DNA of 64,000 nt, from the NCBI RefSeq assembly GCF_013122565.1, contig NZ_CP053258.1. One strand, 5' to 3'. Shown here piece by piece: positions 6,442-58,341 of this stretch (position 1 is its first letter; every line of letters begins with the position of its first letter). The position numbers were made by a program, and so were the translations under genes. This DNA comes from Escherichia coli (lineage in GTDB: Bacteria > Pseudomonadota > Gammaproteobacteria > Enterobacterales > Enterobacteriaceae). The notes below the pieces were generated by a model that was given only the letters and a program-made list of their open reading frames with translations, had not been told where the DNA came from and searched no databases.

Positions 6442-7467
6442 TCAGGAATGTAGCGCTGGATGCGCGACAAAAGGTGTTTTCTGTTTGTGTTTTTTCTCCT
6501 GATACATCGCGATATCGGCAGCATGCAGGGCACTGTCTGCATCGGTTGTTTCAGGATCGACTTCTACTATGCCAAGACTGGCACCAGGATAATACAAATC
6601 AACATCACCTAAGTGATATTCTCCGCGTATTTGCTGCTGAATACGTTCTCGCAGCGACGAAATATCCGCATTCTCGTTGTTCAGTGAAACAACCAAAAAC
6701 TCATCACCGCCGAGACGACCAATAACTTCGCCATTTTGCTGGAGCGTATTAAGGCGCTCGCCAACCTGAATGAGGAACAAATCACCACTATTATGACCAA
6801 AACGATCGTTGATTAATTTGAAGTTATCCAGATCGATAAACGCGATCATTATCTTATGGTTAAGATGCCGGGCGAGGGAAAACAGCGTCGTCAGATTTTC
6901 AAAAATCGCCCGCCGATTCGGTAGCCCGGTTAACGAGTCGGTATACGATTGCGCAATCAGCGCAGCATTGGCTTCGCGCAGCTGTTCAACCAACGCCTCT
7001 TTTTGAATATATTGTGCAATCAGTCCGGCGAATAACTGTAAAACCTGTTCCGCGCGTTCACTCCACTGGCGCTTCTCACTGCTGGCGGCGCAAAGCGTGC
7101 CATAGAATGATCCATCCGGTAAGTGAATTGGCGTGCTCAGAAATGTGGTGATGCCAAGATTGCGTGCCGCAATACAGTCGCCCCAACGGTCAGGGACTTC
7201 ATCGCTGAAAAAGCAGTTTTCATCAATGGCGCGTTTGCATAACGAGTAATCCCACGAGACGGTAAAATTCTCCGGGATGTGCATTTTCTGGCTGTTACGG
7301 GCAAACATAATATGCTGCAGGCGCGCTTCGACATCCACTTTGGTCAGGTAGGTTGATTCCATATCAGTGACCATTTCCAGCATCTCCAGAAGCTGTCGGA
7401 CCAGACTTTCCAGTGACTGTTCTTTGGCAAGGGATTGCGAGACGCGGTCGATGATCTGATCTGACAC
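6442..7467 (-). CDS. dgcP: Diguanylate cyclase (GAF-like N-domain plus GGDEF)
   Basis: GGDEF motif (RLGGDEF); 341 aa from GTG start preceded by ggag. Confidence 0.88.
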   Translation of the reverse strand: MSDQIIDRVSQSLAKEQSLESLVRQLLEMLEMVTDMESTYLTKVDVEARLQHIMFARNSQKMHIPENFTVSWDYSLCKRAIDENCFFSDEVPDRWGDCIAARNLGITTFLSTPIHLPDGSFYGTLCAASSEKRQWSERAEQVLQLFAGLIAQYIQKEALVEQLREANAALIAQSYTDSLTGLPNRRAIFENLTTLFSLARHLNHKIMIAFIDLDNFKLINDRFGHNSGDLFLIQVGERLNTLQQNGEVIGRLGGDEFLVVSLNNENADISSLRERIQQQIRGEYHLGDVDLYYPGASLGIVEVDPETTDADSALHAADIAMYQEKKHKQKTPFVAHPALHS

Positions 7468-10999: not shown

Positions 11000-11104
11000 A
11001 TGAACGATCAAATGTTCGTCGAGACACTGATTATCACGTCATCGTTTTTTGCCATTGCGGTTGTGCTGGTTTTGTCCGTTCTGCTTATTGAACGGACAGG
11101 CTAG
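11000..11104 (+). CDS. yoaI: 34-aa small membrane protein
   Basis: Translation [34 protein letters not shown]; not in ORF track. Confidence 0.7.
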
Positions 11105-11608
11105 TTACGCAGTGCGGCGGAAATTGATCAGTTCTGGTTGCGCAATGCGCAAATAATCCGCGGTTTTCAAAATAACGGATTTATCCAGCATGCCTGCATT
11201 GAAGGCGATTTCATCAAATCGTTCGAAGAGTAGGGGGTCGGCAACCAGTTTGAGTTTTGGATGGAAGCTGAAAGGGGGGATCGCGCCGAAGACACAGCCT
11301 GTGAGTTCATCGACTTCCGCCGGGCTGGCCAACGAAGCGCGTAATCCGCCTATATGGCTGGCGAGTTGGCTCAGATCGGCCTGTTGATCGGCAGCGAGGA
11401 TCGCCAGAACATGTTGATTTACGCCATTGCCTTTGACTTTACATACCAGTGCCTTAGCCCCCTGGCCTAAAGCGGTGCCACGAATTTCTGACACCGCTTC
11501 GCATTTACCTACCGCTTCATGGGTAACGACGCGGAAGTCAGCACCTTCTTGTGATAATAAAGCGATTAACCGCTGATGCGTCACGCTTCCTTTAGCCATT
11601 TCAGTCAT
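11105..11608 (-). CDS. yeaK: YbaK/ProX-type aminoacyl-tRNA deacylase
   Basis: 167-aa ORF. Confidence 0.88.
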   Translation of the reverse strand: MTEMAKGSVTHQRLIALLSQEGADFRVVTHEAVGKCEAVSEIRGTALGQGAKALVCKVKGNGVNQHVLAILAADQQADLSQLASHIGGLRASLASPAEVDELTGCVFGAIPPFSFHPKLKLVADPLLFERFDEIAFNAGMLDKSVILKTADYLRIAQPELINFRRTA

Positions 11609-11650
11609 TTCACGCTCCTGAGATTACAAGCAAACAACCACAGAAGATTA

Positions 11651-13141
11651 TCATGAACGGCTGTTTTTGTTCTGCTTATTGACATATAAACGCTCATCGG
11701 AAGCTTTATACGCATCATGTAACGTATCGTTTTCTTTCATCGCGTAAATACCGGAAGAGAAGCCAATCTCTTTCTGCGGCGCGATATGTTGCAGACGTTT
11801 TTCGATACGTTCAGGCAGTTGTGCTGCAATTTGCGGCGTCGAATCGACAAGAATGATGCAGAATTCATCGCCACCGAGTCGGATGGCATAATCACTTTTA
11901 CGAATCGACAGTTTAATCGCCTGAGCTAATAACGTAATCGCTAAATCCCCCTCCTGATGACCGAGGGTGTCATTTATTTGCTTTAACTTGTCCATGTCAA
12001 TTGCAATAAACATCACCGAAGAACCGGATTGCACCAGTTTTTGCAACCGCTGCTCCAGTTCAGGGGTTAAAATTTTGCGATTATAGAGTCCAGTCATCGC
12101 ATCACTAATATTTTCTCGCGACACATTTTGGTATAAACGGAAGTGCATCCGCACCATATTCAGCAAAATTAACGCCGTCAAAATCCAGAACAGAACGCTT
12201 TTCCACGAAGACGTGATAAAGTAAAGAATATCAATGGATAACGAGACACGAATGCCGCCCGGTAAGTCATGGACGTAACTGACATACTGGAACAGATTAT
12301 CTTCGCTCTGGTTGATGATAATGTCGCGCCCCGAATCTGTATCGGTTAGCGTGACATTGAGAAAACGCCAGAGGAGAGGGCGGTCATGAGTGTAAAAGAT
12401 ATTCCGCAGATTGTTTTTGTTAATATCCAGCAGCACAATCCCTTTTAGCTGCCCTGCAACATACACCGGCGTCAGCAAACTCATCACGTTCTGTTTAGTA
12501 CGCTGATCCTGGTAAATGCTCGACAATACGGTACGCCCGGTAAATACCTTTTCAATATCTTTGCGATCGATGCCAATACTTCCTGACTGCAGGAAGGACC
12601 AGTTATTCATCGCAAAGTATTCAACATTAACCGGCTCATAAAAATAGACATAGCGGTCATTGAGATCGAGATAATAGTGAAATTTCTCTTCGGCCATCCC
12701 AAGACCTGAACCGTAATCATCCTGGTGGCGGTTGCCTTCCACTGCCTGATCAAAAGCGGGTAATAGTGCTGCAGCTTCCACAATTGTGTCGCAGTCAGTG
12801 GATGCGGTTTGTAGTGTGCCGCGTAAGCCCGGGTATTTATGGGCAGTCAGGTTTAAGCCATGGGTATTATTGGCAGACTCAAAAGCCTCGCAGATGGCGC
12901 GCCGCTGTTCTGGCGACACTTCCGACTGCTCAGCAGCGAGAGCGCGCATCACATGCGCGGCAATACTCTGATTCTGATACTTATCATAAAGAAAGGAGGA
13001 GTCTGCTTTCTGCACGATATAGCGCAGATAGGCACTCATTGCTCTGTCGCTGGCGACAAGTTCAAAAATAAGGAAGGAAGATGTCAGCACAATGACACTT
13101 GCGGCGATAAAATGCCGGAGCATTCTATGGTGCAATTTCAT
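11651..13141 (-). CDS. dgcJ: Membrane diguanylate cyclase (GGDEF)
   Basis: 496 aa from MKLHHRMLRH; C-terminal GGDEF (RLGGDEF). Confidence 0.88.
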   Translation of the reverse strand: MKLHHRMLRHFIAASVIVLTSSFLIFELVASDRAMSAYLRYIVQKADSSFLYDKYQNQSIAAHVMRALAAEQSEVSPEQRRAICEAFESANNTHGLNLTAHKYPGLRGTLQTASTDCDTIVEAAALLPAFDQAVEGNRHQDDYGSGLGMAEEKFHYYLDLNDRYVYFYEPVNVEYFAMNNWSFLQSGSIGIDRKDIEKVFTGRTVLSSIYQDQRTKQNVMSLLTPVYVAGQLKGIVLLDINKNNLRNIFYTHDRPLLWRFLNVTLTDTDSGRDIIINQSEDNLFQYVSYVHDLPGGIRVSLSIDILYFITSSWKSVLFWILTALILLNMVRMHFRLYQNVSRENISDAMTGLYNRKILTPELEQRLQKLVQSGSSVMFIAIDMDKLKQINDTLGHQEGDLAITLLAQAIKLSIRKSDYAIRLGGDEFCIILVDSTPQIAAQLPERIEKRLQHIAPQKEIGFSSGIYAMKENDTLHDAYKASDERLYVNKQNKNSRS

Positions 13142-13321
13142 GATAAATGGCACTCCTTCGGTTAGTGAAACGAGAAAACCAGATAAAGTTCGATTGCGGC
13201 CTGGCACAGGGGCGCTAATTATACTCATCTCTGCGCCGCTGGGGAGGGGAAATTTAGGGGTAATAGTAATAAATTGTATGCAAAAGCCACGCAAAAAGCA
13301 TGGCTCTGAATATTTTTGCAC

Positions 13322-14797
13322 TTAAATATGATGAATAATCACTTTGTTGCCCCCCTCGCTTTTCGCTTCGCGTAAGGCTTTATCTGCTTCCGTCATGACA
13401 AGCGAGATATTACGCGTGTCACCCGTTGAAAAAACCGTGCCAATACTGATGGTCATTTGTTCAGGAACATCATATCTGTTACTAAAGCCGGTCAGGAGTT
13501 CGACATTTTTACGCATACGTTCCGCAATGATTTTTGCCTGGGCACTATTGAGTTCGGTAAATAGCAAGCCAAACACCTCACCCTCCAGTCGCGCTAAAAT
13601 ATCATCGGGGCGGATGCTTTGCTGGATAATATCGACAATTGAAACCAGCACTTTATCACCCACACGATGTCCCCATTGGGCATTGATACGTTTGAACTGA
13701 TTAATATCAACCAGCATGACACAGAAGTCCTTAACAACAGGTCGCGACAATAATGACTCTACGCTGTTGAAAAAGTAGCGCCGATTATAAATATTGGTCA
13801 GCACATCATGAACTGCCAGTTTGCTGGAGAGTTGCAGTTCCTGAAAAATGTTATAAATCAGAAAAGACACAACAAACAGTTTACTGGAGACTTCAATCCC
13901 GCGACTGATATACCAGATGGTGTAATTATACTCATCCAGAGTCAGTAGAAGTAAGTTACAGCATAGCGATGCCAGACATAATAATGCTATTAACGGCCAT
14001 AGTTCGCTGGCTAATCGTGTACGCATGATAATAAAGAACAGTAAAAATGCCCACAAACAAACCAATATTTTTGTATAGTTGATTCCCCAGGTCGCAGTAT
14101 GGTTGTCCGGACAGTAATCGACGACATACAAAGAATAGTCAGCGTTATAACTGCTCAGATTGTGTGCCAGAAGGGGAAAAACTAAAAAAGGGATCAGCGC
14201 CAGCAACAGGATTGCCATTTTTTTCTTATTGTTGTCAAGGATGTTGTCTTTTCCATAACAAAAGAGCGCCAGCGAGGTTAAACAAATAAAACTGAGTTGG
14301 CGGAAAATATAGAAAATAGAAACATCATTCGACTTTGTCTGAATCAGTGTACTGTCGCTGATAGGTTTATGGATAACAACAATAGTTTCAACTAAATAGA
14401 TAAGGCCACTTAAAAACGCAAGACTTAAAATGAGTGTTGGTAGAATTTGTTTGTTAGTGAAATATTTCATTAACATGAAAAGAAAAATGATGGCGTTAAG
14501 GAAAAACAAAGCCACAACGACCATCAGATAATTCATCTGTGGGATGAGTTTTACATTCGTGTTTTCGTTATATAAGGTGGTGATGCAAAATAAAATTAAC
14601 GTCAGCAATAAACTGAAAATAAAAAAGCTTTGAGCTTTTAATTTTTGTGTACCCATAGAAACCATAAAAAGGAGAGCAATATGAGTGCTGGATTTTATTG
14701 ATGGCAGAGATATATAGTTTTGACCAGGATCAATTTTCGTTAACGATAAAAAATATTTAAAGAATAACCCCAGGGAAATACGTGTTGACCGAATCAT
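13322..14797 (-). CDS. cdgI: Membrane GGDEF-domain protein, degenerate active site
   Basis: 491 aa; very AT-rich; multi-TM N-terminus; GGDEF-like domain with EGEVF in place of GGDEF. Confidence 0.88.
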   Translation of the reverse strand: MIRSTRISLGLFFKYFLSLTKIDPGQNYISLPSIKSSTHIALLFMVSMGTQKLKAQSFFIFSLLLTLILFCITTLYNENTNVKLIPQMNYLMVVVALFFLNAIIFLFMLMKYFTNKQILPTLILSLAFLSGLIYLVETIVVIHKPISDSTLIQTKSNDVSIFYIFRQLSFICLTSLALFCYGKDNILDNNKKKMAILLLALIPFLVFPLLAHNLSSYNADYSLYVVDYCPDNHTATWGINYTKILVCLWAFLLFFIIMRTRLASELWPLIALLCLASLCCNLLLLTLDEYNYTIWYISRGIEVSSKLFVVSFLIYNIFQELQLSSKLAVHDVLTNIYNRRYFFNSVESLLSRPVVKDFCVMLVDINQFKRINAQWGHRVGDKVLVSIVDIIQQSIRPDDILARLEGEVFGLLFTELNSAQAKIIAERMRKNVELLTGFSNRYDVPEQMTISIGTVFSTGDTRNISLVMTEADKALREAKSEGGNKVIIHHI

Positions 14798-14943
14798 TTT
14801 TCCGAATGATTGTTTTCTGGAACTAAATTGTGTAAAGGTTATGCTGTCATATTTAAAACGATTGTAAGCTAATGTATGTAATAAATGAGATAATTTACAG
14901 TGAGCTAAAAATCAGCCAGGCGATAATGACCCGGCTGATAGTT

Positions 14944-16239
<1,296 letters not shown>

Positions 16240-23643: not shown

Positions 23644-24285
23644 TTACCCCTGCGTCTCTTCCCAGTCTGCCAGCGTATATAGCGTTGCCCCAGCTGCTGA
23701 CATTTCCATAAACGCGTGCGCACTGTCCTGTGGCTGGATATTCACCCCACGACAGCCATCGATAATCACGTTTACCTTATAACCTAACTGTAACGCGTCC
23801 AGCACGGTAAACTTCACGCAATAGTCAGTCGCCAGGCCCATAACGATCAATTCATCGATTTCATGATCGCGTAACCAGTCATCAAGCGAGGTTTTCTGCC
23901 GACGGCCGTTATCAAAAAAGGCACTGTAACTGTCAACTAAAGGATTTTCGCCTTTATGGAACACCGCTGCGATCGCTTTTTGGTTCAGTAACGGATGTAA
24001 TTGTGCGCCTTCACTGTTCTGCACACAGTGATCTGGCCAGAAGGTTTGTGGCAAACCGTCGAGTTGGCCTGGCGTATAAGGCTCTACACCGTGCTGACTG
24101 GCAAAACTGCCGTGATTCGCCGGGTGCCAGTCCTGACTGGCGATAACCGCTTCACCGCGCGACTGGCACCAGTCAATCAGGCGGTTAGCGACATCCACCG
24201 TACTGTCACCTTCCGGCACGGCGAGCGCGCCACCAGCACAGAAATCATTTTGTAAATCGACCAGTAACAGGGCGCGAGGGGGCAT
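23644..24285 (-). CDS. pncA: Nicotinamidase / pyrazinamidase
   Basis: 213 aa from MPPRALLLVDLQNDF. Confidence 0.9.
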   Translation of the reverse strand: MPPRALLLVDLQNDFCAGGALAVPEGDSTVDVANRLIDWCQSRGEAVIASQDWHPANHGSFASQHGVEPYTPGQLDGLPQTFWPDHCVQNSEGAQLHPLLNQKAIAAVFHKGENPLVDSYSAFFDNGRRQKTSLDDWLRDHEIDELIVMGLATDYCVKFTVLDALQLGYKVNVIIDGCRGVNIQPQDSAHAFMEMSAAGATLYTLADWEETQG

Positions 24286-24295
24286 TGCAGTCTCC

Positions 24296-25312
24296 TTAAT
24301 CATCCGGCGTCAGTTCGCCGCGCAGGTTTTGGCTCATGGCCTTGCGAATGGTTTCAGTATCCAGTTCCTGGCTAAGCAGGTAATGCAGTTTGGTTAGCGT
24401 GGCTTCTACAGTCATATCTGCACCGCCAATTACGCCGGCATGGGCGAGGGCGTTACCGGTGGCATAACCACCCATGTTCACTTTACCGGACATACATTGT
24501 GTCAGGTTGACCACCACAATACCGCGATCGCTGGCTTCTTGTAATTCCTGCAGGAAGGCTTTGTTTTGTGGCGCATTACCCACGCCATAGGAGCGCAGAA
24601 TCAATGCTTTCACCGGTTGGCGCAGAAAATTGCGCACGACGTCAGCAGAAATCCCCGGATAAATCGTCACTACGCCAATTGGTTGCGGGGTGATTGGATG
24701 AACGATCAATTCCCCATCACCGTGCGGGGCGGGTGGCGTATTCAAACGACGAATATGGATACCTGCTTCCAGTAACGGAGGAAGGTTTGGAGAGGCAAAC
24801 GCATCAAAACCATCGGCATGGGCTTTGGTAGTGCGGTTGCCGCGATACAGTCGGTTATTAAAAAAGAGTGTTACTTCGTTGATCGGATAATTCGCCGCAA
24901 CGTACAACGCATTCAGCAGATTAATTTGTCCGTCAGAGCGTAGCTCAGCCAGCGGGATTTGTGACCCTGTCACAATGACCGGTTTACCGAGATTCTCGAG
25001 CATGAACGACAGCGCAGAGGCGGTATACGCCATCGTGTCGGTACCGTGTAGAATGACAAAACCATCATAGTCGTCATAGTGCGCTTTAATATCTTCAGCA
25101 ATATGCTGCCAGTCTTCCGGCGTCATATCTGAAGAATCCATCAGTGGCGTATATTCATGAATGGTGAAATCTGGCATCTCCGGGCGATGGAATTCCGGCA
25201 TCAGCGCCAGTTGGCGTTGTAGATGACCTGACACCGGTATATAACCCTGCTCGGAACGCTGCATCCCGATGGTCCCGCCCGTGTAGGCAACGTAAATTGA
25301 TTTCTTTTGCAT
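24296..25312 (-). CDS. ansA: Cytoplasmic L-asparaginase I
   Basis: 338 aa MQKKSIYVAYTGGTIGM... Confidence 0.92.
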   Translation of the reverse strand: MQKKSIYVAYTGGTIGMQRSEQGYIPVSGHLQRQLALMPEFHRPEMPDFTIHEYTPLMDSSDMTPEDWQHIAEDIKAHYDDYDGFVILHGTDTMAYTASALSFMLENLGKPVIVTGSQIPLAELRSDGQINLLNALYVAANYPINEVTLFFNNRLYRGNRTTKAHADGFDAFASPNLPPLLEAGIHIRRLNTPPAPHGDGELIVHPITPQPIGVVTIYPGISADVVRNFLRQPVKALILRSYGVGNAPQNKAFLQELQEASDRGIVVVNLTQCMSGKVNMGGYATGNALAHAGVIGGADMTVEATLTKLHYLLSQELDTETIRKAMSQNLRGELTPDD

Positions 25313-25390
25313 GATATTGATATGAATGATATCGAAAGAGCAAAAGTATATACGTGAGGGGCAGCGAGCGCACCTGGATACTCTGTGGAT

Positions 25391-25440
25391 ATGAGAAAAG
25401 TCCGGCAGGACGGAGGGATTAGTGTCCCGCCGGAGAAAAG
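25391..25440 (-). terminator. Stem-loop downstream of the extra lipoprotein gene
   Basis: Minus strand: tccggcgggac-12 nt loop-gtcctgccgga then cttttctc. Confidence 0.4.
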
Positions 25441-25443
25441 TGG

Positions 25444-26166
25444 TTAATCCTGCAACGCATAGGTTACGGTCGTGACTACGCGTACCGTTTTATTAATCGC
25501 CGTAGGATCATCTTCATCACTGCCACTGGCAAAGATCTGGAATACGCCTTGTGAGGCATCGCTAATTGACCCCACCTGGCTACCTGAGTCCGTTGCAAAT
25601 TGTAGTGCGGCGTTGCGTGCATCTTTGGTGGCGGCAGCAATCATCTCAGCGCGCAGTGCGCCAATACCATTAAAGCGATAGGCGACTTTGCTCTCAGCGA
25701 TAGCGCCATCTGTAGCGACTTGCAGTTCGTTTAATTTCGCGACGACTTTTTCGACAGCAGCAACATTATGGGTTTTTATCGTCACTGACCCGTCTGCGTT
25801 ATAGCGTGGCATTGTGGGATCATCTTTCAGATAGAAGGAATCTGTTCGCTTGCTTGTCCATTGGCCCAGGATTATCTCTTTCTCGTTAATCCCCTGAGCA
25901 TTGAGTTCGGCAACAATTTTTTTCTGCGCGTCTTCCAGTTTCGGGAACAGTTCGCCGGGAACATTACCTTTAAAGTTAAGCGCAATTATTAATTCTGCCG
26001 TATCTGCGCGAACTTCTTTTTCAGAAAGCCCGCGCACATTGACATAACGGTTGTTGGTTTTTAAATGTTTAACACCATCGCCAACAAAATAACCACAGGC
26101 GCTAATCCCCAGTCCGAGGACGATAGCGGCAATTAAAGAGGGGGCCTTGTTCACTGATGACTCCAT
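25444..26166 (-). CDS. Predicted lipoprotein, SIMPL/DUF541-like (BP26/YggE-type) domain; no K-12 counterpart at this position
   Basis: 240 aa from MESSVNKAPSLIAAIVLGLGISA|C (lipobox ISAC); SIMPL-like pattern VNVRG...ADTAEL..., C-terminal KTVRVVTTVTYAL; ORF stays open upstream to a GTG at 26256, so the start is uncertain. Confidence 0.7.
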   Translation of the reverse strand: MESSVNKAPSLIAAIVLGLGISACGYFVGDGVKHLKTNNRYVNVRGLSEKEVRADTAELIIALNFKGNVPGELFPKLEDAQKKIVAELNAQGINEKEIILGQWTSKRTDSFYLKDDPTMPRYNADGSVTIKTHNVAAVEKVVAKLNELQVATDGAIAESKVAYRFNGIGALRAEMIAAATKDARNAALQFATDSGSQVGSISDASQGVFQIFASGSDEDDPTAINKTVRVVTTVTYALQD

Positions 26167-26269
26167 ATCAGATGCTAAATGAGCAAGGGAATGTAGTGGA
26201 GAGAGGGAGTGAAAGACAGTCCGATTCAGGAGTGTGGCCGACAGCATATCGGCCACATTTTTGCAGGAT

Positions 26270-28126
26270 TTAACGCACGTTGGCGCAGGTCAGGCAAAAC
26301 GCATAACGGTTTTGTGGGTCGTTAAACGCCGCCAGCTTGTCGCTTTCACTTTTAACGGTAGAGGCTACCGAGGCCAGCGGTGCAGGTAACATGGCCTGGA
26401 ACGCATCTGGCAACATTGCCCGGACAGAACCAGACATGTTGTCCATCACTTTGTCGAAGAAGGTCGGTTCATCAACGTAGTATTCCAGATGCCACTGTTT
26501 CACTTTTGCCAGCTCTGCTGCTTTGGCGACCGCATCATCGAAATCCCCGAGACTATCGACCAGCCCGTTAGCTTTTGCGTCCTGACCGGTCCAGACGTGG
26601 CCCTGGGCGATTTTATCAATCTGCTCCGGCGTCGAATGACGCGCATCAGCAACCAGCGTGATAAAGCGTTTATAGCCATTCTCAATGCTTAACTGCATCA
26701 TCTGCTGCGCTTCCGGCGGCAGTGCCCTGGTGATAGAAACATCCGCCAGCGGTGAAGTTGAGACACCATCAGTATGAACACCAATCGAATCCAGACTATT
26801 TTCTACGGTGGTGATCACGCCGAAGATACCGATAGAACCGGTCAGGGTGCTGGGGTTAGCCACAATGTAATTAGCTGGCGTGGAAATCCAGTAACCACCA
26901 GATGCCGCCATGCCGCCCATCGATACAACCACAGGCTTACCCGCAGCCCGGGCTGCTGCCAGTTCAGCGCGAATCACTTCAGACGCGGTAACGCTGCCGC
27001 CTGGGCTATTAACACGCAGAACAATCGCTTTCACTTTCGGGTCAAGGCGAGCGTCGCGGATTTGTGCCGCAGTGGTATCACCGCCAACATTCCCCTGAGT
27101 TTCCTCGCCATCCATAATTGCGCCATTAGCGAAGACGACACCGATGCTGTCACCGGTATCTGCTGGCGTTTTCAATGCGTAATCGTAATAACTGATGGCG
27201 CGATAATTTTTATCAGTCTTACTCCAGCCGAACTCTTTGGTCAGAGCTTTTTCGATTTCGGCACTCGATGCCAGTGCATCGACCAGCTTGTTTTCCAGCG
27301 CATATTTCGCGGTATCGCCACCGGTTTTGGTTAAACCTTCAAGCAACCCTTGCGCGCCAGGAAATACCTGCTGAGCAGGGATCTGCCGGTTAGCGGCAAC
27401 AGTATTCAGATAGTTTTGCCACAGCTCACCAATCCAGCGGCTGTCAGCTTCGCGGGCTGCCGGTGACATATCATCACGAATAAACGGTTCAACGGCAGAT
27501 TTATACGTACCCACGCGGAACACATGGGTGGAAACTTTCAGCTTATCCAGCAACGATTTGTAGTACAGACCGTTGGTGGCAAAGCCGTGTAGATCAACCA
27601 CGCCTTGCGGAGACAGCCAAATTTTATTGGCGAAACTGGCGAGATAATATTGCCCCTGGCTGTAGTTCTCGCCAACGGCATAAACCGGTTTCCCGCTGTC
27701 ACGAAACTCTTTCAGGGCTTTGCCGATGTACTGCATAGACGGCTGGTCGCCGCCTGCGAAGTTTTTCAGATCCATCACGATACCGGTGATATTGCGGTCG
27801 TCCTTCGCCTGGCGAATGGTGTTGACGATATCAAACAGTGAGTTTTCCTGCAGACGATCGGAACTGGCACCAAGTAGTTGGCGGCTTAATTTACTAAACC
27901 GCTGAGAACTGTCGGGTTTATCGACGATTACACCAGAAATGTCCAGCAGCAGTGCACCACGACTGGCCGTTTCTTTCGAATCACCACCACTGACCTGCAT
28001 CCAGATCCCCACACCAACCAGCACGAGAAAAATAAAGAACAGGTTAAGTACCATTTCACGGACGAAATTCAGCAGACGCCACGTCCATTTAAAAAATCCG
28101 GCAATAAATCGCCAAAGGGTTCGCAT
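26270..28126 (-). CDS. sppA: Signal peptide peptidase A (protease IV)
   Basis: 618 aa from [12 protein letters not shown]. Confidence 0.9.
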
Positions 28127-28286
28127 GTATTCTCCCAACTTAAGGTCACACCTGTCACAGGCGCAATAGATGTGGTTATCGTAATGACCCAACCGACACT
28201 TGTCAGCAGGAATTGCGGACTGTGCTGTAACAAAATCCACTCTCGTGTTAATTTTGTGAATAAATATCATGACAGGAGTTAATCAA

Positions 28287-28838
28287 ATGGATGCACTCGA
28301 ACTATTGATCAATCGCCGTAGCGCCTCCCGCCTGGCTGAACCCGCGCCAACGGGTGAACAACTGCAAAACATCCTGCGTGCGGGTATGCGCGCGCCGGAC
28401 CATAAGTCCATGCAACCGTGGCATTTTTTTGTGATTGAAGGGGAAGGACGCGAGCGTTTCAGCGCCGCACTGGAACAGGGGGCGATTGCTGCCGGTAGTG
28501 ATGACAAAGCTATCGACAAAGCCCGTAATGCGCCGTTCCGCGCACCGCTCATCATCACGGTGGTGGCGAAATGCGAAGAAAATCATAAAGTCCCGCGATG
28601 GGAACAGGAAATGTCTGCCGGATGCGCGGTCATGGCGATGCAAATGGCAGCCGTTGCCCAGGGGTTTGGCGGCATCTGGCGCAGTGGCGCATTAACTGAA
28701 AGCCCGGTAGTGCGTGAAGCATTCGGTTGCCGTGAGCAGGATAAAATTGTCGGTTTTCTCTACCTCGGTACGCCGCAGTTGAAAGCATCTACGTCGATAA
28801 ACGTCCCGGACCCGACGCCGTTTGTGACTTATTTCTGA
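28287..28838 (+). CDS. ydjA: NAD(P)H nitroreductase
   Basis: 183 aa from [12 protein letters not shown]. Confidence 0.88.
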
Positions 28839-28954
28839 TAATTGTCGCGAAACTGTCTGGATTGTGAGCAAAGGCGCAGGAATTCAGACACTCTCACTTA
28901 TCACTTCACGGAATGAGGGTTACCATACCCGGATTGCATTGACAGGAGATGTCC

Positions 28955-29998
28955 ATGAGCGAGAACTCGATTCGTTTGACCCAATACAGCCACGGAGCTG
29001 GTTGCGGCTGTAAAATTTCCCCAAAAGTGTTGGAAACCATCCTGCACAGTGAGCAGGCGAAGTTTGTTGATCCGAATTTGCTTGTGGGTAATGAAACCCG
29101 CGACGATGCGGCGGTGTACGATCTGGGCAATGGCACCAGCGTTATCAGTACCACCGACTTCTTTATGCCGATCGTTGATAATCCTTTCGATTTTGGCCGC
29201 ATTGCGGCGACTAACGCCATCAGCGATATCTTCGCGATGGGGGGCAAACCGATTATGGCGATTGCGATCCTCGGCTGGCCGATTAACAAACTTTCCCCGG
29301 AAATTGCCCGCAAAGTAACCGAAGGTGGACGCTATGCATGCCGTCAGGCGGGTATTGCGCTGGCTGGCGGTCACTCCATCGATGCGCCGGAGCCGATTTT
29401 TGGTCTGGCGGTAACGGGGATCGTACCGACCGAGCGGGTGAAGAAAAACAGTACCGCACAAGCCGGATGCAAACTGTTCCTGACGAAACCGCTGGGGATC
29501 GGCGTTCTTACCACGGCTGAGAAAAAATCACTGTTGAAACCAGAACATCAGGGACTGGCGACGGAAGTGATGTGCCGGATGAACATCGCAGGCGCGTCCT
29601 TTGCCAACATTGAAGGCGTAAAAGCGATGACCGACGTAACGGGCTTTGGCCTGCTGGGCCATTTGAGCGAAATGTGTCAGGGCGCAGGTGTGCAGGCGCG
29701 CGTTGACTATGACGCGATCCCAAAATTGCCGGGGGTTGAAGAGTACATTAAGTTGGGCGCAGTGCCTGGCGGCACCGAACGTAACTTTGCCAGCTACGGT
29801 CATCTGATGGGTGAAATGCCGCGTGAAGTGCGCGATTTGCTGTGCGATCCGCAAACTTCTGGCGGTTTGCTGCTGGCGGTCATGCCGGAAGCAGAAAATG
29901 AGGTTAAAGCTACAGCCGCCGAGTTTGGCATTGAACTGACGGCGATTGGCGAACTGGTGCCAGCGCGCGGCGGTCGTGCCATGGTTGAGATCCGTTAA
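28955..29998 (+). CDS. selD: Selenide, water dikinase (selenophosphate synthetase)
   Basis: 347 aa [23 protein letters not shown]. Confidence 0.92.
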
Positions 29999-30002
29999 TT
30001 CA

Positions 30003-31964
30003 ATGCGGTTGTTTATTGCCGAAAAACCGAGTCTGGCGCGTGCCATTGCTGATGTCCTGCCCAAACCGCACCGGAAAGGCGATGGCTTTATTGAGTGCGG
30101 TAATGGTCAGGTGGTGACCTGGTGTATCGGTCACCTGCTTGAGCAGGCGCAGCCAGACGCCTACGACAGCCGCTATGCGCGCTGGAATCTTGCGGATTTG
30201 CCGATTGTCCCGGAAAAGTGGCAATTACAGCCCCGACCCTCCGTGACCAAACAACTTAATGTCATCAAACGCTTTTTGCATGAAGCCAGCGAAATCGTTC
30301 ATGCCGGGGACCCGGATCGTGAAGGGCAATTGCTGGTGGATGAAGTGCTGGACTATCTGCAACTGGCACCGGAAAAGCGCCAGCAGGTGCAGCGTTGCTT
30401 GATAAACGACCTGAACCCGCAGGCGGTTGAGCGGGCGATCGACCGTCTTCGTTCCAACAGTGAGTTTGTACCGCTGTGCGTTTCTGCGCTGGCGCGAGCG
30501 CGTGCCGACTGGCTGTACGGCATCAATATGACCCGTGCGTATACCATTCTCGGTCGCAATGCCGGTTATCAGGGCGTACTTTCCGTGGGACGCGTGCAGA
30601 CACCCGTGCTCGGGCTGGTGGTGCGCCGCGATGAAGAGATTGAAAACTTCGTGGCGAAAGACTTCTTTGAAGTCAAAGCACATATCGTGACACCTGCCGA
30701 TGAGCGGTTTACCGCTATCTGGCAACCGAGCGAAGCGTGTGAACCGTACCAGGATGAAGAAGGGCGCTTGTTACATCGTCCACTGGCGGAGCATGTGGTT
30801 AACCGCATTAGTGGTCAACCGGCTATTGTCACCAGCTATAACGATAAACGGGAATCAGAATCCGCGCCGCTGCCTTTTTCGCTTTCGGCGTTGCAGATTG
30901 AAGCGGCAAAACGCTTTGGTCTGAGCGCGCAGAACGTGCTTGATATCTGCCAGAAGCTGTACGAAACGCACAAGCTAATCACTTATCCGCGTTCCGATTG
31001 TCGCTATTTGCCAGAAGAACATTTTGCCGGACGCCACGCGGTGATGAATGCCATCAGCGTTCATGCACCGGGCTTGTTACCGCAGCCGGTGGTAGATCCG
31101 AATATGCGCAACCGCTGTTGGGATGACAAAAAGGTCGATGCGCACCACGCCATCATCCCGACCGCACGGAGTTCTGCGATCAACCTGACGGAGAACGAAG
31201 CGAAGGTCTATAACCTGATTGCCCGTCAGTACTTGATGCAGTTCTGCCCGGATGCGGTCTTCCGCAAGTGTGTTATCGAACTGGACATTGCCAAAGGCAA
31301 ATTTGTCGCTAAAGCCCGTTTTCTTGCTGAAGCAGGCTGGCGCACGCTGTTAGGCAGCAAAGAGCGCGATGAAGAAAACGACGGCACGCCATTGCCTGTG
31401 GTGGCGAAAGGCGATGAGTTGCTGTGTGAAAAAGGTGAAGTGGTAGAGCGGCAAACCCAGCCGCCGCGCCATTTTACCGATGCAACACTGCTTTCGGCGA
31501 TGACCGGGATCGCGCGCTTTGTACAGGACAAAGATCTGAAAAAGATCCTCCGTGCTACCGATGGTCTGGGGACAGAAGCAACGCGTGCCGGGATTATTGA
31601 ACTGCTGTTCAAGCGTGGCTTCCTGACCAAAAAAGGGCGCTATATCCACTCTACCGACGCCGGAAAAGCGTTATTCCATTCGCTGCCGGAGATGGCGACG
31701 CGACCGGACATGACCGCTCACTGGGAATCGGTGCTGACGCAAATCAGCGAAAAGCAGTGTCGCTACCAGGACTTTATGCAGCCGCTGGTGGGGACGCTAT
31801 ATCAGCTTATTGATCAAGCCAAACGTACTCCGGTGCGGCAGTTTCGCGGCATTGTGGCTCCGGGCAGTGGTGGCAGTGCTGATAAGAAAAAGGCTGCAAC
31901 GCGTAAACGTAGTGCGAAAAAAAGTCCGCCAGCAGATGAAGCCGGAAGCGGGGCGATAGCGTAA
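30003..31964 (+). CDS. topB: DNA topoisomerase III
   Basis: 653 aa [20 protein letters not shown], Toprim and topo IA domains. Confidence 0.92.
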
Positions 31965-32091
31965 GCAAGCGAATCTTTCGTGCTATTCGAGTCATATTCT
32001 GAAATATCCAGCGGATCAAGAAAATTCGTTGGATATTTTTTTCGCATGGATAAAATTATCGCCTCTAAAGTATGTAATAACAGGGAATGTG

Positions 32092-33123
32092 ATGAAAAAA
32101 GTTTTATTACAAAACCATCCAGGGAGTGAAAAGTATTCTTTTAACGGCTGGGAAATATTTAATATTAATTTAGACCAGGTGATTAAAGAAAATAAACCTA
32201 TGCTGCTTTGTAAGTGGGGGTTTTATATAACCTGTACTTTCGCTGCACTGTTAGTTTGTGCAGGCCTTACAGCAAATGGTTTAAGTGATAAAGGCAAAGT
32301 GACCGCTGGCTATGCTTTTCTTTATCTTTTAATTATGGCGGCTTTGGTTATTCGAGCTGGCTTCAGGGCAAAAAAAGAACAGTTACACTATTATAAGGCA
32401 AAGGGTATTGAGCCGCTGAGTGAAGAAAAGTTGCAGGCATTGCGGCTGATTGCACCCAATCGCTTCTATAACCAACAGTGGTCTGAATCGCTTGAATTTT
32501 GGCCACGGAAGCCTGCATTGGGAACGGATACTTTTCGCTATCATGTTTTACGTTTTGAGTCTGTCGGAGTGACTCGCCAGCGTCGCAAGTCTTTGGATGA
32601 CAGCTGGGGGATAGTCGATAGCCAAAGTTATATCGCTTTAATGGAATATTTTCTTTCAGGTGAGCATGGCTCAAATGCATTTAAAGAACACATGGAAGAA
32701 AATCCGCAAGAAGTGATTGCGATGTTAAGTAAAGTTAAGGATTTTCCTGAGGATTATCTTTATGACTGTACCATCCGTCGAATTGATAAGTCATCTCCAC
32801 GCTTGATATGGGCTGCCGAGATAGCATGGATAATAGGCTTAACCTGCTCGACATACCAGAATGGAACGATTGAGGAAGATCTGGCCTGGCACTATATTTT
32901 GGCTGCCTCGAAAAAAGCCTATGAACTCTTTGAGAGCGAAGAAGAGTTCCATCGAAACAGTTTGATGGGGTCATGGTACTGGCATGCTTTCTGCTATCGA
33001 ATGAAACTCATGGACGCTGAGCTGGAAGAAGGTCATCTCTACGACGTGGAAATTCTGGAACATTACCGAAAGAAGTGTCGTTGGCCCATTAAAAACCTTC
33101 CCTGGGGCACATCCTCAAACTGA
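32092..33123 (+). CDS. ynjI: DUF1266 inner-membrane protein
   Basis: AT-rich ORF; start ATG at 32092 or GTG at 32089. Confidence 0.8.
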   Translation: MKKVLLQNHPGSEKYSFNGWEIFNINLDQVIKENKPMLLCKWGFYITCTFAALLVCAGLTANGLSDKGKVTAGYAFLYLLIMAALVIRAGFRAKKEQLHYYKAKGIEPLSEEKLQALRLIAPNRFYNQQWSESLEFWPRKPALGTDTFRYHVLRFESVGVTRQRRKSLDDSWGIVDSQSYIALMEYFLSGEHGSNAFKEHMEENPQEVIAMLSKVKDFPEDYLYDCTIRRIDKSSPRLIWAAEIAWIIGLTCSTYQNGTIEEDLAWHYILAASKKAYELFESEEEFHRNSLMGSWYWHAFCYRMKLMDAELEEGHLYDVEILEHYRKKCRWPIKNLPWGTSSN

Positions 33124-55326: not shown

Positions 55327-55647
55327 ATGGAAAAGAAACACATTTATCTGTTTTGTTCTGCGGGCATGTCTACCTCTTTACTGGTATCAAAAATGCGCGC
55401 ACAGGCAGAAAAATATGAAGTTCCGGTCATTATTGAAGCATTTCCGGAAACACTGGCTGGTGAAAAAGGTCAGAATGCCGATGTCGTGTTATTAGGGCCG
55501 CAGATTGCTTATATGTTGCCCGAAATCCAGCGTTTGTTACCCAACAAACCGGTTGAAGTAATTGACTCGCTGCTTTATGGCAAAGTCGATGGTTTAGGCG
55601 TGCTTAAGGCTGCGGTTGCAGCGATTAAAAAAGCCGCAGCAAATTAA
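55327..55647 (+). CDS. chbB: PTS chitobiose EIIB
   Basis: 106 aa, active-site Cys near N-terminus ([11 protein letters not shown]). Confidence 0.9.
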
Positions 55648-57498: not shown

Positions 57499-58341
57499 AT
57501 GATGCAGCCAGTGATTAACGCGCCGGAAATTGCCACTGCCCGGGAACAGCAGTTGTTTAATGGCAAAAACTTCCATGTGTTTATCTATAACAAAACTGAG
57601 AGTATCAGCGGACTGCATCAGCACGACTATTATGAATTTACTCTGGTATTAACCGGGCGTTATTTCCAGGAGATTAACGGTAAGCGCGTTTTACTGGAAC
57701 GGGGCGATTTTGTTTTTATTCCGTTAGGTTCGCACCATCAAAGCTTTTATGAGTTTGGTGCCACGCGCATATTGAACGTTGGGATCAGTAAACGCTTTTT
57801 TGAGCAGCATTACCTGCCGTTGTTGCCTTATTGCTTTGTAGCTTCGCAGGTATACCGGACCAATAACGCTTTTCTCACCTATATGGAAACAGTGATTTCT
57901 TCATTGAATTTCCGCGAAACAGGGCTGGAAGAGTTTGTTGAGATGGTTACTTTTTATGTCATTAACCGTTTACGTCATTACCGCGAAGAACAGGTGATTG
58001 ATGATGTACCGCAGTGGCTGAAAAGTACGGTAGAAAAGATGCATGATAAAGAGCAGTTTAGTGAATCGGCGCTGGAGAATATGGTGACGTTGTCAGCCAA
58101 ATCACAGGAATATTTGACGCGAGCGACCCAACGATATTATGGCAAAACGCCAATGCAGATTATTAATGAAATCCGTATTAATTTTGCCAAAAAACAACTG
58201 GAAATGACTAACTATTCAGTGACGGACATTGCGTTTGAGGCCGGTTATAGTAGCCCGAGTTTGTTTATTAAAACGTTTAAGAAATTAACGTCCTTTACGC
58301 CTAAGAGCTATCGTAAGAAATTGACTGAATTTAATCAGTAA
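57499..58341 (+). CDS. chbR: AraC-family dual regulator of chb operon
   Basis: 280 aa, cupin plus AraC HTH. Confidence 0.9.

Follow-up and report, generated by a model that had tools for sequence, protein, structure and literature searches.

The window analysed here is a 64,000-nucleotide stretch of an Escherichia coli chromosome (NZ_CP053258.1), and the locus under study is the known E. coli pair cdgI (yeaI) and dgcJ (yeaJ). The pair is part of the arrangement yeaG-yeaH-cdgI-dgcJ-yeaK, which is conserved in Escherichia and lies in inverted orientation in the window. Compared with K-12, identity is 98.6% over 20 kb and the gene order is unchanged. All genes, domains, motifs and promoter elements given with coordinates below are on the minus strand. 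dgcJ occupies positions 11651..13141 and encodes a probable active-type diguanylate cyclase of 496 aa, in agreement with RefSeq, and cdgI, as annotated in RefSeq, spans 13322..14797 (491 aa). The initial annotation had described the genes as adjacent, co-stranded and both ending in a GGDEF domain, and this was found to be correct. The Pfam GGDEF domain lies at the end of both proteins (PF00990, 134.6 bits in DgcJ and 152.8 bits in CdgI, cut-off 23.8; TIGR00254, 119.7 and 123.1 bits, respectively, cut-off 37.4). The spacer between them measures 180 bp with 45% GC (13142..13321), and no terminator-like hairpin was detected in it. A terminator-like hairpin with a T-run does occur just past the yeaH stop codon (14911..14939; 11-bp stem with 6 GC pairs, then TTTTAGCTCA). 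It is kept across Escherichia and sets the yeaGH operon apart from cdgI. A third GGDEF gene nearby, dgcP (yeaP; 6445..7467), encodes a soluble cyclase with Pfam GAF and GGDEF domains and 99.4% identity to K-12 DgcP; it had been placed about 4 kb away, and the distance to the dgcJ stop is 4.18 kb. In a gene-order simulation with 19 GGDEF genes, the chance of an adjacent GGDEF pair was P = 0.077, and that of a pair with a third member within 8 genes was P = 0.005.

DgcJ is readily assigned. The NCBIfam equivalog model NF040885 (DgcJ) scored 745.3 bits (cut-off 500) and was covered from position 1 to 492 of 493, and a 556-aa ORF with a GTG start reaching 13321 is an extension of dgcJ made by the ORF lister. 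It is the same gene as K-12 dgcJ (YeaJ, b1786), with a single substitution (L411; Q in K-12) and otherwise nothing notable. The periplasmic sensor GAPES1 covers residues 31-304 (12230..13051; PF17155, E = 5.9e-151), and a hydropathy scan placed hydrophobic helices on either side of it, at approximately residues 11-29 and 312-334. Both proteins had been called multi-TM, which holds for CdgI, with about seven hydrophobic segments in its MASE4 region, but not for DgcJ, which has two helices around the 274-residue GAPES1 domain. The GGDEF domain of DgcJ covers residues 346-494 (11660..12106; PF00990, E = 3.4e-39). As in K-12 DgcJ, RxxD and GGDEF are intact: the I-site RKSD and the A-site GGDEF are found at 11861-11902 (RKSD-x5-GGDEF; translation RKSDYAIRLGGDEF). 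The guanine-binding IND motif is present as INDTLGH. In the MAFFT alignment the GRN column is not matched by DgcJ, whose C-terminus reads ...RLYVNKQNKNSRS, and the placement of its phosphate-binding Arg is uncertain. DgcJ would be a conventional membrane diguanylate cyclase, its periplasmic GAPES1 domain lying between two helices and governing a GGDEF domain in which both the A-site and the I-site are intact.

CdgI consists of a MASE4 integral-membrane sensor at residues 88-319 (13841..14536; PF17158, 165.5 bits, cut-off 28.4, E = 1.7e-48; 36-37% GC) followed by a degenerate GGDEF domain at residues 328-485 (13343..13816; PF00990, E = 9e-45), which aligns to solved active cyclases with E = 4e-22. 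The report of EGEVF instead of GGDEF was confirmed, as CdgI reads RPDDILARLEGEVF (RPDD-x5-EGEVF). In the GGDEF-domain alignment, EGEVF, INA and GGN stand in CdgI where solved cyclases and paralogs have GGEEF, IND and GRN. The degenerate A-site EGEVF (residues 405-409; 13571..13585) replaces GG(D/E)EF in translation and in alignment with both solved cyclases and Citrobacter orthologs, and the residue string given for YeaI in the literature is KNAHDREGEVF (Spurbeck et al., 2012). Five residues N-terminal to it lies an intact I-site, RPDD (RxxD; residues 396-399; 13601..13612), giving the string RPDD-ILARL-EGEVF. At residues 371-377 (13667..13687), INAQWGH aligns to INDTYGH of active cyclases, with the guanine-binding Asp changed to Ala; IND is retained by the Citrobacter orthologs, DgcT, DgcJ and DgcP. 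At residues 477-484 (13346..13369), EAKSEGGN carries Gly for the phosphate-binding Arg of GRN, and upstream of GGN the segment ALYEAK has become ALREAK. The conserved Arg of AERMR lies at 13511-13525. Also kept are the DxLT...NRR segment, which contacts Mg and GTP, and the Glu at position 3 of the motif. Measured against catalytic GGDEF domains of the PleD/WspR type, CdgI lacks the combination of GG(D/E)EF, IND and GRN that marks an active cyclase.

Comparison of CdgI orthologs revealed that the A-site drifts (EGEVF, EGEEF, EGNVF, EGKRF). All orthologs examined keep RxxD, which is RPDD or RPED in all of the degenerate ones. Omega for cdgI is 0.06-0.11 (codons 45-491), compared with 0.02-0.04 for dgcJ and approximately 0.01 for yeaH, and cdgI is under purifying selection. 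Compared with K-12 CdgI (YeaI, b1785), the protein in the window is the product of the same gene, with the same length of 491 aa, 98.4% identity and 8 substitutions, none of them in the GGDEF domain; EGEVF, RPDD, the MASE4 and GGDEF domains and the flanking genes are all alike. At the nucleotide level 30 of 1,476 positions differ, every one before codon 196, and across 5,426 complete E. coli genomes the best match to the allele in the window is no more than 98.9% identical. The window itself reaches no more than 98.7-98.9% identity with any complete RefSeq E. coli genome, and in one segment its nearest matches are O157:H7 and O55:H7.

The two genes had further been described as tandem paralogs. 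This is misleading because cdgI and dgcJ encode different GGDEF architectures, and the GGDEF domains of CdgI and DgcJ are 27% identical, against 28-31% for either with DgcP. The implied history is tandem duplication followed by subfunctionalisation of one copy into a pseudo-enzyme, and it draws on the position of the genes as neighbours on one strand, each encoding a membrane-anchored protein with a C-terminal GGDEF domain, and on the adjacency of two of the 19 GGDEF genes (P = 0.077, as above). The similarity is nevertheless confined to the GGDEF domain, and the N-terminal sensors come from different Pfam families (MASE4 in CdgI, GAPES1 in DgcJ). Moreover, a tree placed CdgI with DgcT, DgcX-like proteins and syntenic Citrobacter MASE4 proteins, with DgcJ as the outgroup, and cdgI is missing from many genera, whether or not they have dgcJ. 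The tree, the domain content and the pairwise identities all speak against tandem duplication, which was rejected and which we consider barely credible.

DgcT (YcdT) and DgcX of E. coli are full-length paralogs of CdgI with the same MASE4 and GGDEF domains (for DgcT, 38% identity over 448 residues, E = 9e-101), and the grouping of YcdT, DgcX and YeaI in one MASE4-GGDEF family has already been published. DgcT and DgcX keep GGEEF, IND and GRN, as active MASE4-GGDEF cyclases, whereas none of the three survives in CdgI. The yeaH-dgcJ slot of Citrobacter sp. Awk 4/NCU1-type genomes encodes MASE4-GGEEF proteins with 57-61% identity to CdgI (P0020, P0024 and P0025). Unlike CdgI, these syntenic orthologs have intact GGEEF, IND and GRN motifs; with an intact A-site, they are therefore presumably still cyclases. 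In the tree the degenerate CdgI clade is sister to them and nested within the MASE4-GGDEF family. CdgI descends from an active MASE4-GGEEF cyclase that is still found in the yeaH-dgcJ slot of some Citrobacter. The evolutionary polarity is clear, from active cyclase to receptor in the Escherichia branch, with four coordinated active-site losses and continuing purifying selection.

Base composition was also examined. cdgI had been noted as AT-rich, and indeed no gene in the reference set of 48 has a lower GC than its 38.6% (set mean 51.2%, sd 3.7, z = -3.4); GC3 is 0.429 (z = -2.2). The proposed AT-rich block essentially covers cdgI and its upstream spacer (33% GC) but does not extend to dgcJ, which is merely mildly low (45.8% GC, z = -1.5). 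Rare codons, which had been claimed for cdgI, were not found in excess: ATA makes up 7.8% of Ile codons (z = 0.0) and AGA plus AGG 5.6% of Arg codons (z = +0.3), and with ATA, AGA and AGG at average usage, rare-codon enrichment was rejected. Only TTA plus CTA among Leu codons is raised (z = +1.9). Amino-acid composition accounts for 0.090 of the 0.136 GC deficit, and synonymous sites account for the other 0.046. dgcT equals cdgI in AT-richness (38.6% GC), the Citrobacter orthologs have 37-38% GC, and every MASE4-GGDEF relative is similarly AT-rich. The low GC of cdgI is best understood as an old, family-wide trait, mostly due to a composition rich in Ile, Leu, Phe, Asn and Lys, and not as the mark of a recent transfer. 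Membrane-protein composition as the sole cause was rejected, as the membrane proteins NimT and YeaL of the same window are not AT-rich. A family trait of this kind calls for caution with composition-based calls of horizontal transfer.

Horizontal origin, as put forward in the initial annotation, is weakly supported as an ancient event by low GC and GC3, patchiness and a variable slot, whereas presence, synteny and dS speak against a recent one. The stronger form of the idea, in which cdgI would be foreign DNA gained recently, an AT-rich island placed between yeaH and dgcJ and kept under xenogeneic silencing, would account for the lowest GC of the reference set, the low GC3, the 33% GC spacer and the near silence of the gene in laboratory conditions. 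It would also fit the distribution across genera: of 80 species representatives of the Enterobacteriaceae, only those of Escherichia yielded a full-length ortholog, and the slot between yeaH and yeaK is occupied, depending on the genus, by a methyltransferase-like ORF, a LysR-type regulator, a glycosyltransferase-like ORF or a Usp-like ORF. However, 5,418 of 5,426 complete E. coli genomes (99.9%) carry cdgI, the gene is syntenic in every Escherichia lineage found, E. albertii and E. whittamii among them, its dS matches that of the flanking core genes and is similar across cdgI, dgcJ and yeaH, and a syntenic ortholog with an intact A-site (GGEEF) exists in some Citrobacter-type genomes or contigs. 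Two thirds of the GC deficit come from amino-acid composition and are shared family-wide, including by dgcT at its separate locus, and classical rare codons are at average frequency. In the ORF and annotation listings we saw no IS, integrase, tRNA or flanking repeat, and the yeaI FNR site has no H-NS overlap (Myers et al., 2013, Table S6; PMC3688515). A literature search for yeaI together with H-NS returned nothing specific. Composition is atypical, but presence, dS, synteny and the absence of mobility genes from the ORF lists point the other way, and a recent island is improbable. In Citrobacter, empty and occupied sites align only in the flanking coding sequences; because the spacers are unalignable, this comparison was uninformative as to an insertion or deletion footprint. 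S. flexneri 2457T is without cdgI.

That CdgI acts as a receptor and not as a cyclase, as the initial annotation proposed, had already been published (Sarenko et al., 2017). In that work the purified K-12 GGDEF domain of CdgI bound c-di-GMP in vitro (Fig. S4B), and CdgI was described as having a degenerate A-site, an intact I-site and multiple GGDEF-GGDEF contacts; cdgI expression was undetectable and its overexpression toxic (PMC5635695). The GGDEF domain encoded in the window is identical in amino-acid sequence to the K-12 domain. The receptor reading fits the sequence, with its loss of four catalytic positions, its retained I-site and a dN/dS of 0.06-0.11. CdgI is a MASE4-family membrane protein that has probably lost GGDEF catalysis and has kept its RxxD I-site, most likely a c-di-GMP-binding receptor or modulator, and other proteins' GGDEF domains have been proposed as its partners in heteromeric contacts. 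Both the absence of cyclase activity in vivo and the heterodimer mechanism are inferred.

YeaI is nonetheless treated as an active cyclase in some papers, and CdgI might, EGEVF notwithstanding, still act as a diguanylate cyclase, weakly or under certain conditions, and feed the c-di-GMP pool directly. Later papers cite Sanchez-Torres et al. (2011) for raised c-di-GMP upon yeaI expression in BW25113. In CFT073, a ΔyeaI strain has a biofilm defect in no-salt LB that the cyclase WspR complements; WspR did not rescue its defect in glycerol medium. Changes in c-di-GMP might be explained by indirect effects via other cyclases. The retained DxLT...NRR contacts and third-position Glu, one ortholog lineage with EGEEF (P0007), and reports that Shigella GGDEF genes with premature stop codons contribute to c-di-GMP levels would also agree with residual activity. 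Against this, four conserved substrate or catalytic positions are altered together, positions 3 and 4 of the A-site drift freely in orthologs (EGNVF, EGKRF), and specialists class CdgI as inactive. Residual cyclase activity is therefore very improbable.

The sole FNR box in the window, TTGATCCTGGTCAA, lies inside the annotated cdgI ORF (14720..14733), matches 9 of 10 consensus positions (TTGAT-N4-ATCAA) and stands 22 nt before the -10 hexamer TAAAAT (14692..14697) in class II geometry. From this, FNR would be centred at -41.5, with transcription predicted to start near 14685. The FNR half-sites are kept in 10/10 orthologous upstream regions, and the spacing and the hexamer (TAAAAT or TAGAAT) in 9/10, with a 1-nt shift in E. 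albertii; the syntenic Citrobacter orthologs have the same box and -10 geometry. ChIP-seq found an FNR peak here, with the site called 'Within yeaI' (Myers et al., 2013, Tables S5 and S6; PMC3688515). Omega is 0.6-0.86 in codons 1-44, and the conserved coding part, as delimited by omega, covers 13322-14665 (from M45) or 13322-14656 (from M48). The first 44 annotated codons are probably non-coding and, because the promoter sits inside the annotated ORF, CdgI probably starts at M45 or M48. No Shine-Dalgarno sequence was found ahead of either in E. coli, whereas the Citrobacter orthologs have a recognisable AAGAG. cdgI is probably driven from this class II promoter, with activation by FNR as the predicted input. 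A site filed as lying within yeaI thus looks like the true, conserved promoter of cdgI, and the annotated start codon would therefore be incorrect.

Occupancy by sigma70 at yeaI is greater anaerobically, and no FNR-dependent change in yeaI expression was seen in glucose minimal medium (Myers et al., 2013, Table S9; PMC3688515). A sigma70 ChIP peak lies approximately 80 bp upstream of the annotated ATG, and a second promoter and a translated 44-codon extension are therefore possible in E. coli. Basal RNA-seq counts for yeaI are 1-9 reads, with a 34-fold rise under AppY overproduction (PMC10057817). Aerobic expression of cdgI is very low, and AppY may supply a second input to its transcription. 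An intragenic AppY and sigma70 peak was also observed approximately 844-888 nt into cdgI, and no productive internal start for a soluble GGDEF fragment was evident.

These observations allow a more specific proposal, in which CdgI is an anoxia-specific c-di-GMP sensor, expressed from the FNR promoter with a start at M45 or M48, evolved from an active cyclase and serving as a c-di-GMP-gated 'anti-cyclase'. As such it might titrate active GGDEF proteins, its neighbour DgcJ perhaps among them, by way of heteromeric contacts between GGDEF domains. We hold this proposal to be speculative and rather unlikely as a whole. If true, it would name the 'still-unknown conditions' of CdgI expression left by Sarenko et al. 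(2017), and anaerobiosis is a concrete condition under which to seek CdgI function.

We consider it highly likely that cdgI and dgcJ are two independent, vertically inherited core c-di-GMP genes of Escherichia, one encoding the cyclase DgcJ and the other a catalytically dead receptor or modulator, CdgI, whose AT-richness is old and family-wide. The pair itself is real but ordinary and adds nothing new, as both genes already have names, annotations and experimental work behind them, and for CdgI the degenerate A-site, the intact I-site and c-di-GMP binding have been published. The analysis adds to this the IND to INA, GRN to GGN and ALYEAK to ALREAK losses, the drift of the A-site with RxxD constant, and purifying selection on the gene. 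Degenerate GGDEF domains that bind c-di-GMP through the I-site are also found in PopA of Caulobacter and PelD of Pseudomonas. Both differ from CdgI in architecture and output and have no specific sequence relationship to it. What they would have in common with CdgI is the concept of a GGDEF fold with a dead A-site, in which RxxD is used as a c-di-GMP sensor.

Two genes on the minus strand, dgcJ (yeaJ) and cdgI (yeaI), account for positions 11651-14797, an identification based on the listed ORFs, on Pfam and on annotated genomes used for comparison. dgcJ (11651-13141) encodes 496 aa with GAPES1 and GGDEF domains; a 556-aa ORF that begins with GTG and reaches 13321 was set aside as a mere extension by the ORF lister. 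cdgI, as annotated (13322-14797), encodes 491 aa with MASE4 and GGDEF domains. The two genes lie in a conserved Escherichia region, yeaG-yeaH-cdgI-dgcJ-yeaK-yoaI-yeaL-nimR-nimT-yeaO-yoaF-dgcP, which is inverted relative to K-12, and alignment of the window gave 98.6% identity to K-12 across 20 kb. The initial annotation correctly described them as same-strand neighbours with a third cyclase gene about 4 kb away: dgcP (6445-7467, GAF and GGDEF domains) is separated from the end of dgcJ by 4.18 kb. What was noticed is genuine, but it concerns two genes that are already known, annotated and characterised by experiment. With 19 GGDEF genes, an adjacent pair would not be very surprising by chance (P = 0.077), while a pair with a third member within eight genes is surprising (P = 0.005).

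The proposal that cdgI and dgcJ are tandem paralogs, each with a multi-spanning membrane sensor, was not sustained. CdgI does have about seven hydrophobic segments, but in DgcJ two helices bracket a 274-residue periplasmic domain. Their GGDEF domains share 27% identity, and each shares 28–31% with that of DgcP, so the pair is no closer than either is to the third protein. CdgI resembles the MASE4-GGDEF cyclase DgcT more (38% identity over 448 residues), and neighbour-joining placed DgcJ outside the entire MASE4 group. Taken together, the architectures, the low identity, the similarity to DgcT and the tree rule out a tandem duplication.

AT-richness and rare codons had been taken as signs of horizontal origin. 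Of the 48 reference genes in the window, cdgI does have the lowest GC (0.386, z = -3.4; the mean is 0.512 and the sd 0.037), with a GC3 of 0.429 (z = -2.2), but enrichment in classical rare codons was dismissed, as ATA (7.8% of Ile codons, z = 0.0) and AGA+AGG (5.6% of Arg codons, z = +0.3) are at ordinary levels and TTA+CTA among Leu codons is alone raised (z = +1.9). Its 5' part is the most extreme, with 32% GC in codons 1-87, 37% in the MASE4 region and 33% in the yeaH-cdgI spacer; dgcJ is only mildly low (GC 0.458, z = -1.5). Of the GC deficit of 0.136, amino acid composition contributes 0.090 and synonymous sites 0.046, and CdgI is rich in Leu (15.7%), Ile (10.4%), Phe (6.9%) and Asn (5.7%) and poor in Ala, Gly and Pro. 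Other membrane proteins of the window, NimT and YeaL, show no AT-richness. Equally low GC was found in dgcT (0.386), the Citrobacter orthologs (0.374–0.383) and the homolog P0012 (0.361). Elsewhere in the window, low GC was also noted in a gene for a DUF1266 protein (32092-33123, plus strand; GC and GC3 both 0.42), in one for an AraC-type regulator with a cupin domain (57499-58341, plus strand; GC 0.415) and in the PTS IIB gene beside the latter (55327-55647; GC 0.44).

Distribution and synteny argue against a recent acquisition. cdgI is present in 5,418 of 5,426 complete E. coli genomes, and among 80 Enterobacteriaceae species loci fetched with YeaH as anchor, every Escherichia lineage found has a full-length CdgI with yeaH on one side and dgcJ on the other. 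Synonymous divergence within Escherichia is 0.52–0.73 for cdgI, 0.42–0.75 for dgcJ and 0.53–0.67 for yeaH, which indicates that cdgI has diverged together with its neighbours. A homology search further revealed MASE4-GGDEF proteins with 57–61% identity to CdgI in Citrobacter of the sp. Awk 4 and NCU1 type (P0020, P0024 and P0025), whose contigs have the order yeaG-yeaH-[MASE4-GGDEF]-dgcJ-yeaK-yeaL, as in Escherichia. Most Citrobacter have dgcJ after yeaH, directly or past other genes, and dgcJ itself is also missing from Enterobacter and others. The yeaH-yeaK slot is empty, or holds dgcJ alone or cdgI plus dgcJ, depending on genus. Other contents, also genus-dependent, are a LysR regulator, a glycosyltransferase-like ORF and a Usp-like ORF, and several Citrobacter carry a methyltransferase-like ORF of 256 aa in the opposite orientation. 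Because the slot varies between genera, an ancient gain, or an exchange between Escherichia and Citrobacter, is possible; horizontal origin holds at most for such an older event. When empty Citrobacter sites were compared with occupied ones, the coding regions on either side could be aligned and the spacers could not.

At the strain level, S. flexneri 2457T lacks cdgI. Segments 11000-15200, 13322-14797 and 24000-32000 reach at most 98.7–98.9% identity to any of the 5,426 complete RefSeq E. coli genomes, those nearest to the 24-32 kb segment being O157:H7 and O55:H7. Besides the full-length CdgI cluster (10,877 member sequences), there are clusters truncated to MASE4 only, P0013 (345 aa, 639 members), P0019 (295 aa, 249) and P0023 (281 aa, 934), a hint that truncation alleles may recur in some E. 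coli lineages.

The annotated start of cdgI is probably wrong in E. coli. Codons 1-44 (14666-14797, minus strand) have a dN/dS of 0.6–0.86 and look non-coding, and E. whittamii, E. albertii and two further Escherichia lineages have lost the ATG or the frame of this extension. PGAP annotates 447-aa proteins in other Escherichia species, and homologs have their first residue where CdgI has M45 or M48; that of DgcT aligns with M48. No Shine-Dalgarno sequence was found before the ATG of M45 (14665) or M48 (14656) in E. coli. Inside the annotated ORF lies the sole match to TTGAT-N4-RTCAA in the window, the FNR box TTGATCCTGGTCAA (14720-14733, minus strand). A -10 hexamer, TAAAAT, follows 22 nt past the box (whole element 14692-14733, minus strand), a class II FNR geometry with its centre at -41.5, which would put the transcript start near 14685 (about 1,870,497 in K-12 U00096.3). 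All ten orthologous upstream regions keep the half-sites and nine of them, the distant Citrobacter type included, keep TAAAAT or TAGAAT at a spacing of 22 nt, although the bases in between have diverged; in Citrobacter Awk 4 the box is a perfect consensus, TTGATCCTAATCAA. Exactly this site was found to be FNR-bound by ChIP-seq ("Within yeaI"), without H-NS overlap, and sigma70 occupancy at yeaI was higher anaerobically, although an FNR-dependent expression change was absent in glucose minimal medium (Myers et al., 2013). A sigma70 peak is also present upstream of the annotated ATG. It is plausible that cdgI is induced anaerobically from this putative internal promoter, with the protein starting at M45 or M48. 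The c-di-GMP papers examined, for which the condition of CdgI expression is "unknown", make no link to the FNR site.

Several other regulators have been reported for the gene. AppY has a ChIP-seq summit within cdgI (+844; U00096.3 1871229), and on AppY overproduction yeaI reads rose from 1–9 to 62–259 with yeaJ unchanged. For SrsR there are a gSELEX site and qRT-PCR data, RstA was shown by EMSA at the yeaI promoter, and repression by CsrA is cited by Sarenko et al. (2017). An intragenic sigma70 peak at +888 rises 26-fold anaerobically, so that signals of two published data sets nearly coincide at about 13909-13953, the MASE4/GGDEF boundary, near which promoter-like hexamers occur on both strands. 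Directly after the yeaH stop, a strong terminator-like hairpin (11-bp stem, then a T-run; 14911-14939, minus strand) is conserved across Escherichia, so cdgI is transcribed separately from yeaGH.

The degenerate active site of CdgI was borne out. Translation gave RPDDILARLEGEVF for CdgI and RKSDYAIRLGGDEF for DgcJ, and alignment to solved active cyclases placed EGEVF where GGEEF is found at the A-site and INA for IND. The family alignment added GRN to GGN and ALYEAK to ALREAK. In PleD numbering we take the altered positions to be G368, E371, D344 and R446. A-sites drift among orthologs: E. coli and P0012 have EGEVF, P0007 has EGEEF, E. albertii EGNVF and P0018 EGKRF. CdgI keeps the RxxD I-site and, downstream, the arginine of AERxR, and RxxD is kept in all orthologs compared, as RPDD or RPED. 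Against five other Escherichia lineages, codons 45-491 have a dN/dS of 0.06–0.11; cdgI is clearly under purifying selection and not decaying, under weaker constraint than dgcJ (0.02–0.04) or yeaH (about 0.01).

The suggested role as a c-di-GMP receptor is in line with specialist literature. Sarenko et al. (2017) described a degenerate A-site and intact I-site and found that the purified GGDEF domain binds c-di-GMP and that CdgI contacts other GGDEF domains strongly in heteromeric combinations; expression was undetectable and overexpression toxic. CdgI was likewise considered catalytically non-functional and grouped with YcdT and DgcX (Cimdins-Ahne et al., 2023). In dissent, YeaI has been counted as a "verified" cyclase on citation of Sanchez-Torres (2011), and WspR rescued a delta-yeaI strain in one medium but failed in another (Spurbeck, 2012). 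The GGDEF domains of the degenerate clade have 3–8 points lower identity to every outgroup than those of the intact Citrobacter orthologs, which fits a moderate acceleration following loss of catalysis. These orthologs, of the Awk 4 and NCU1 type, retain GGEEF, IND and GRN, unlike CdgI.
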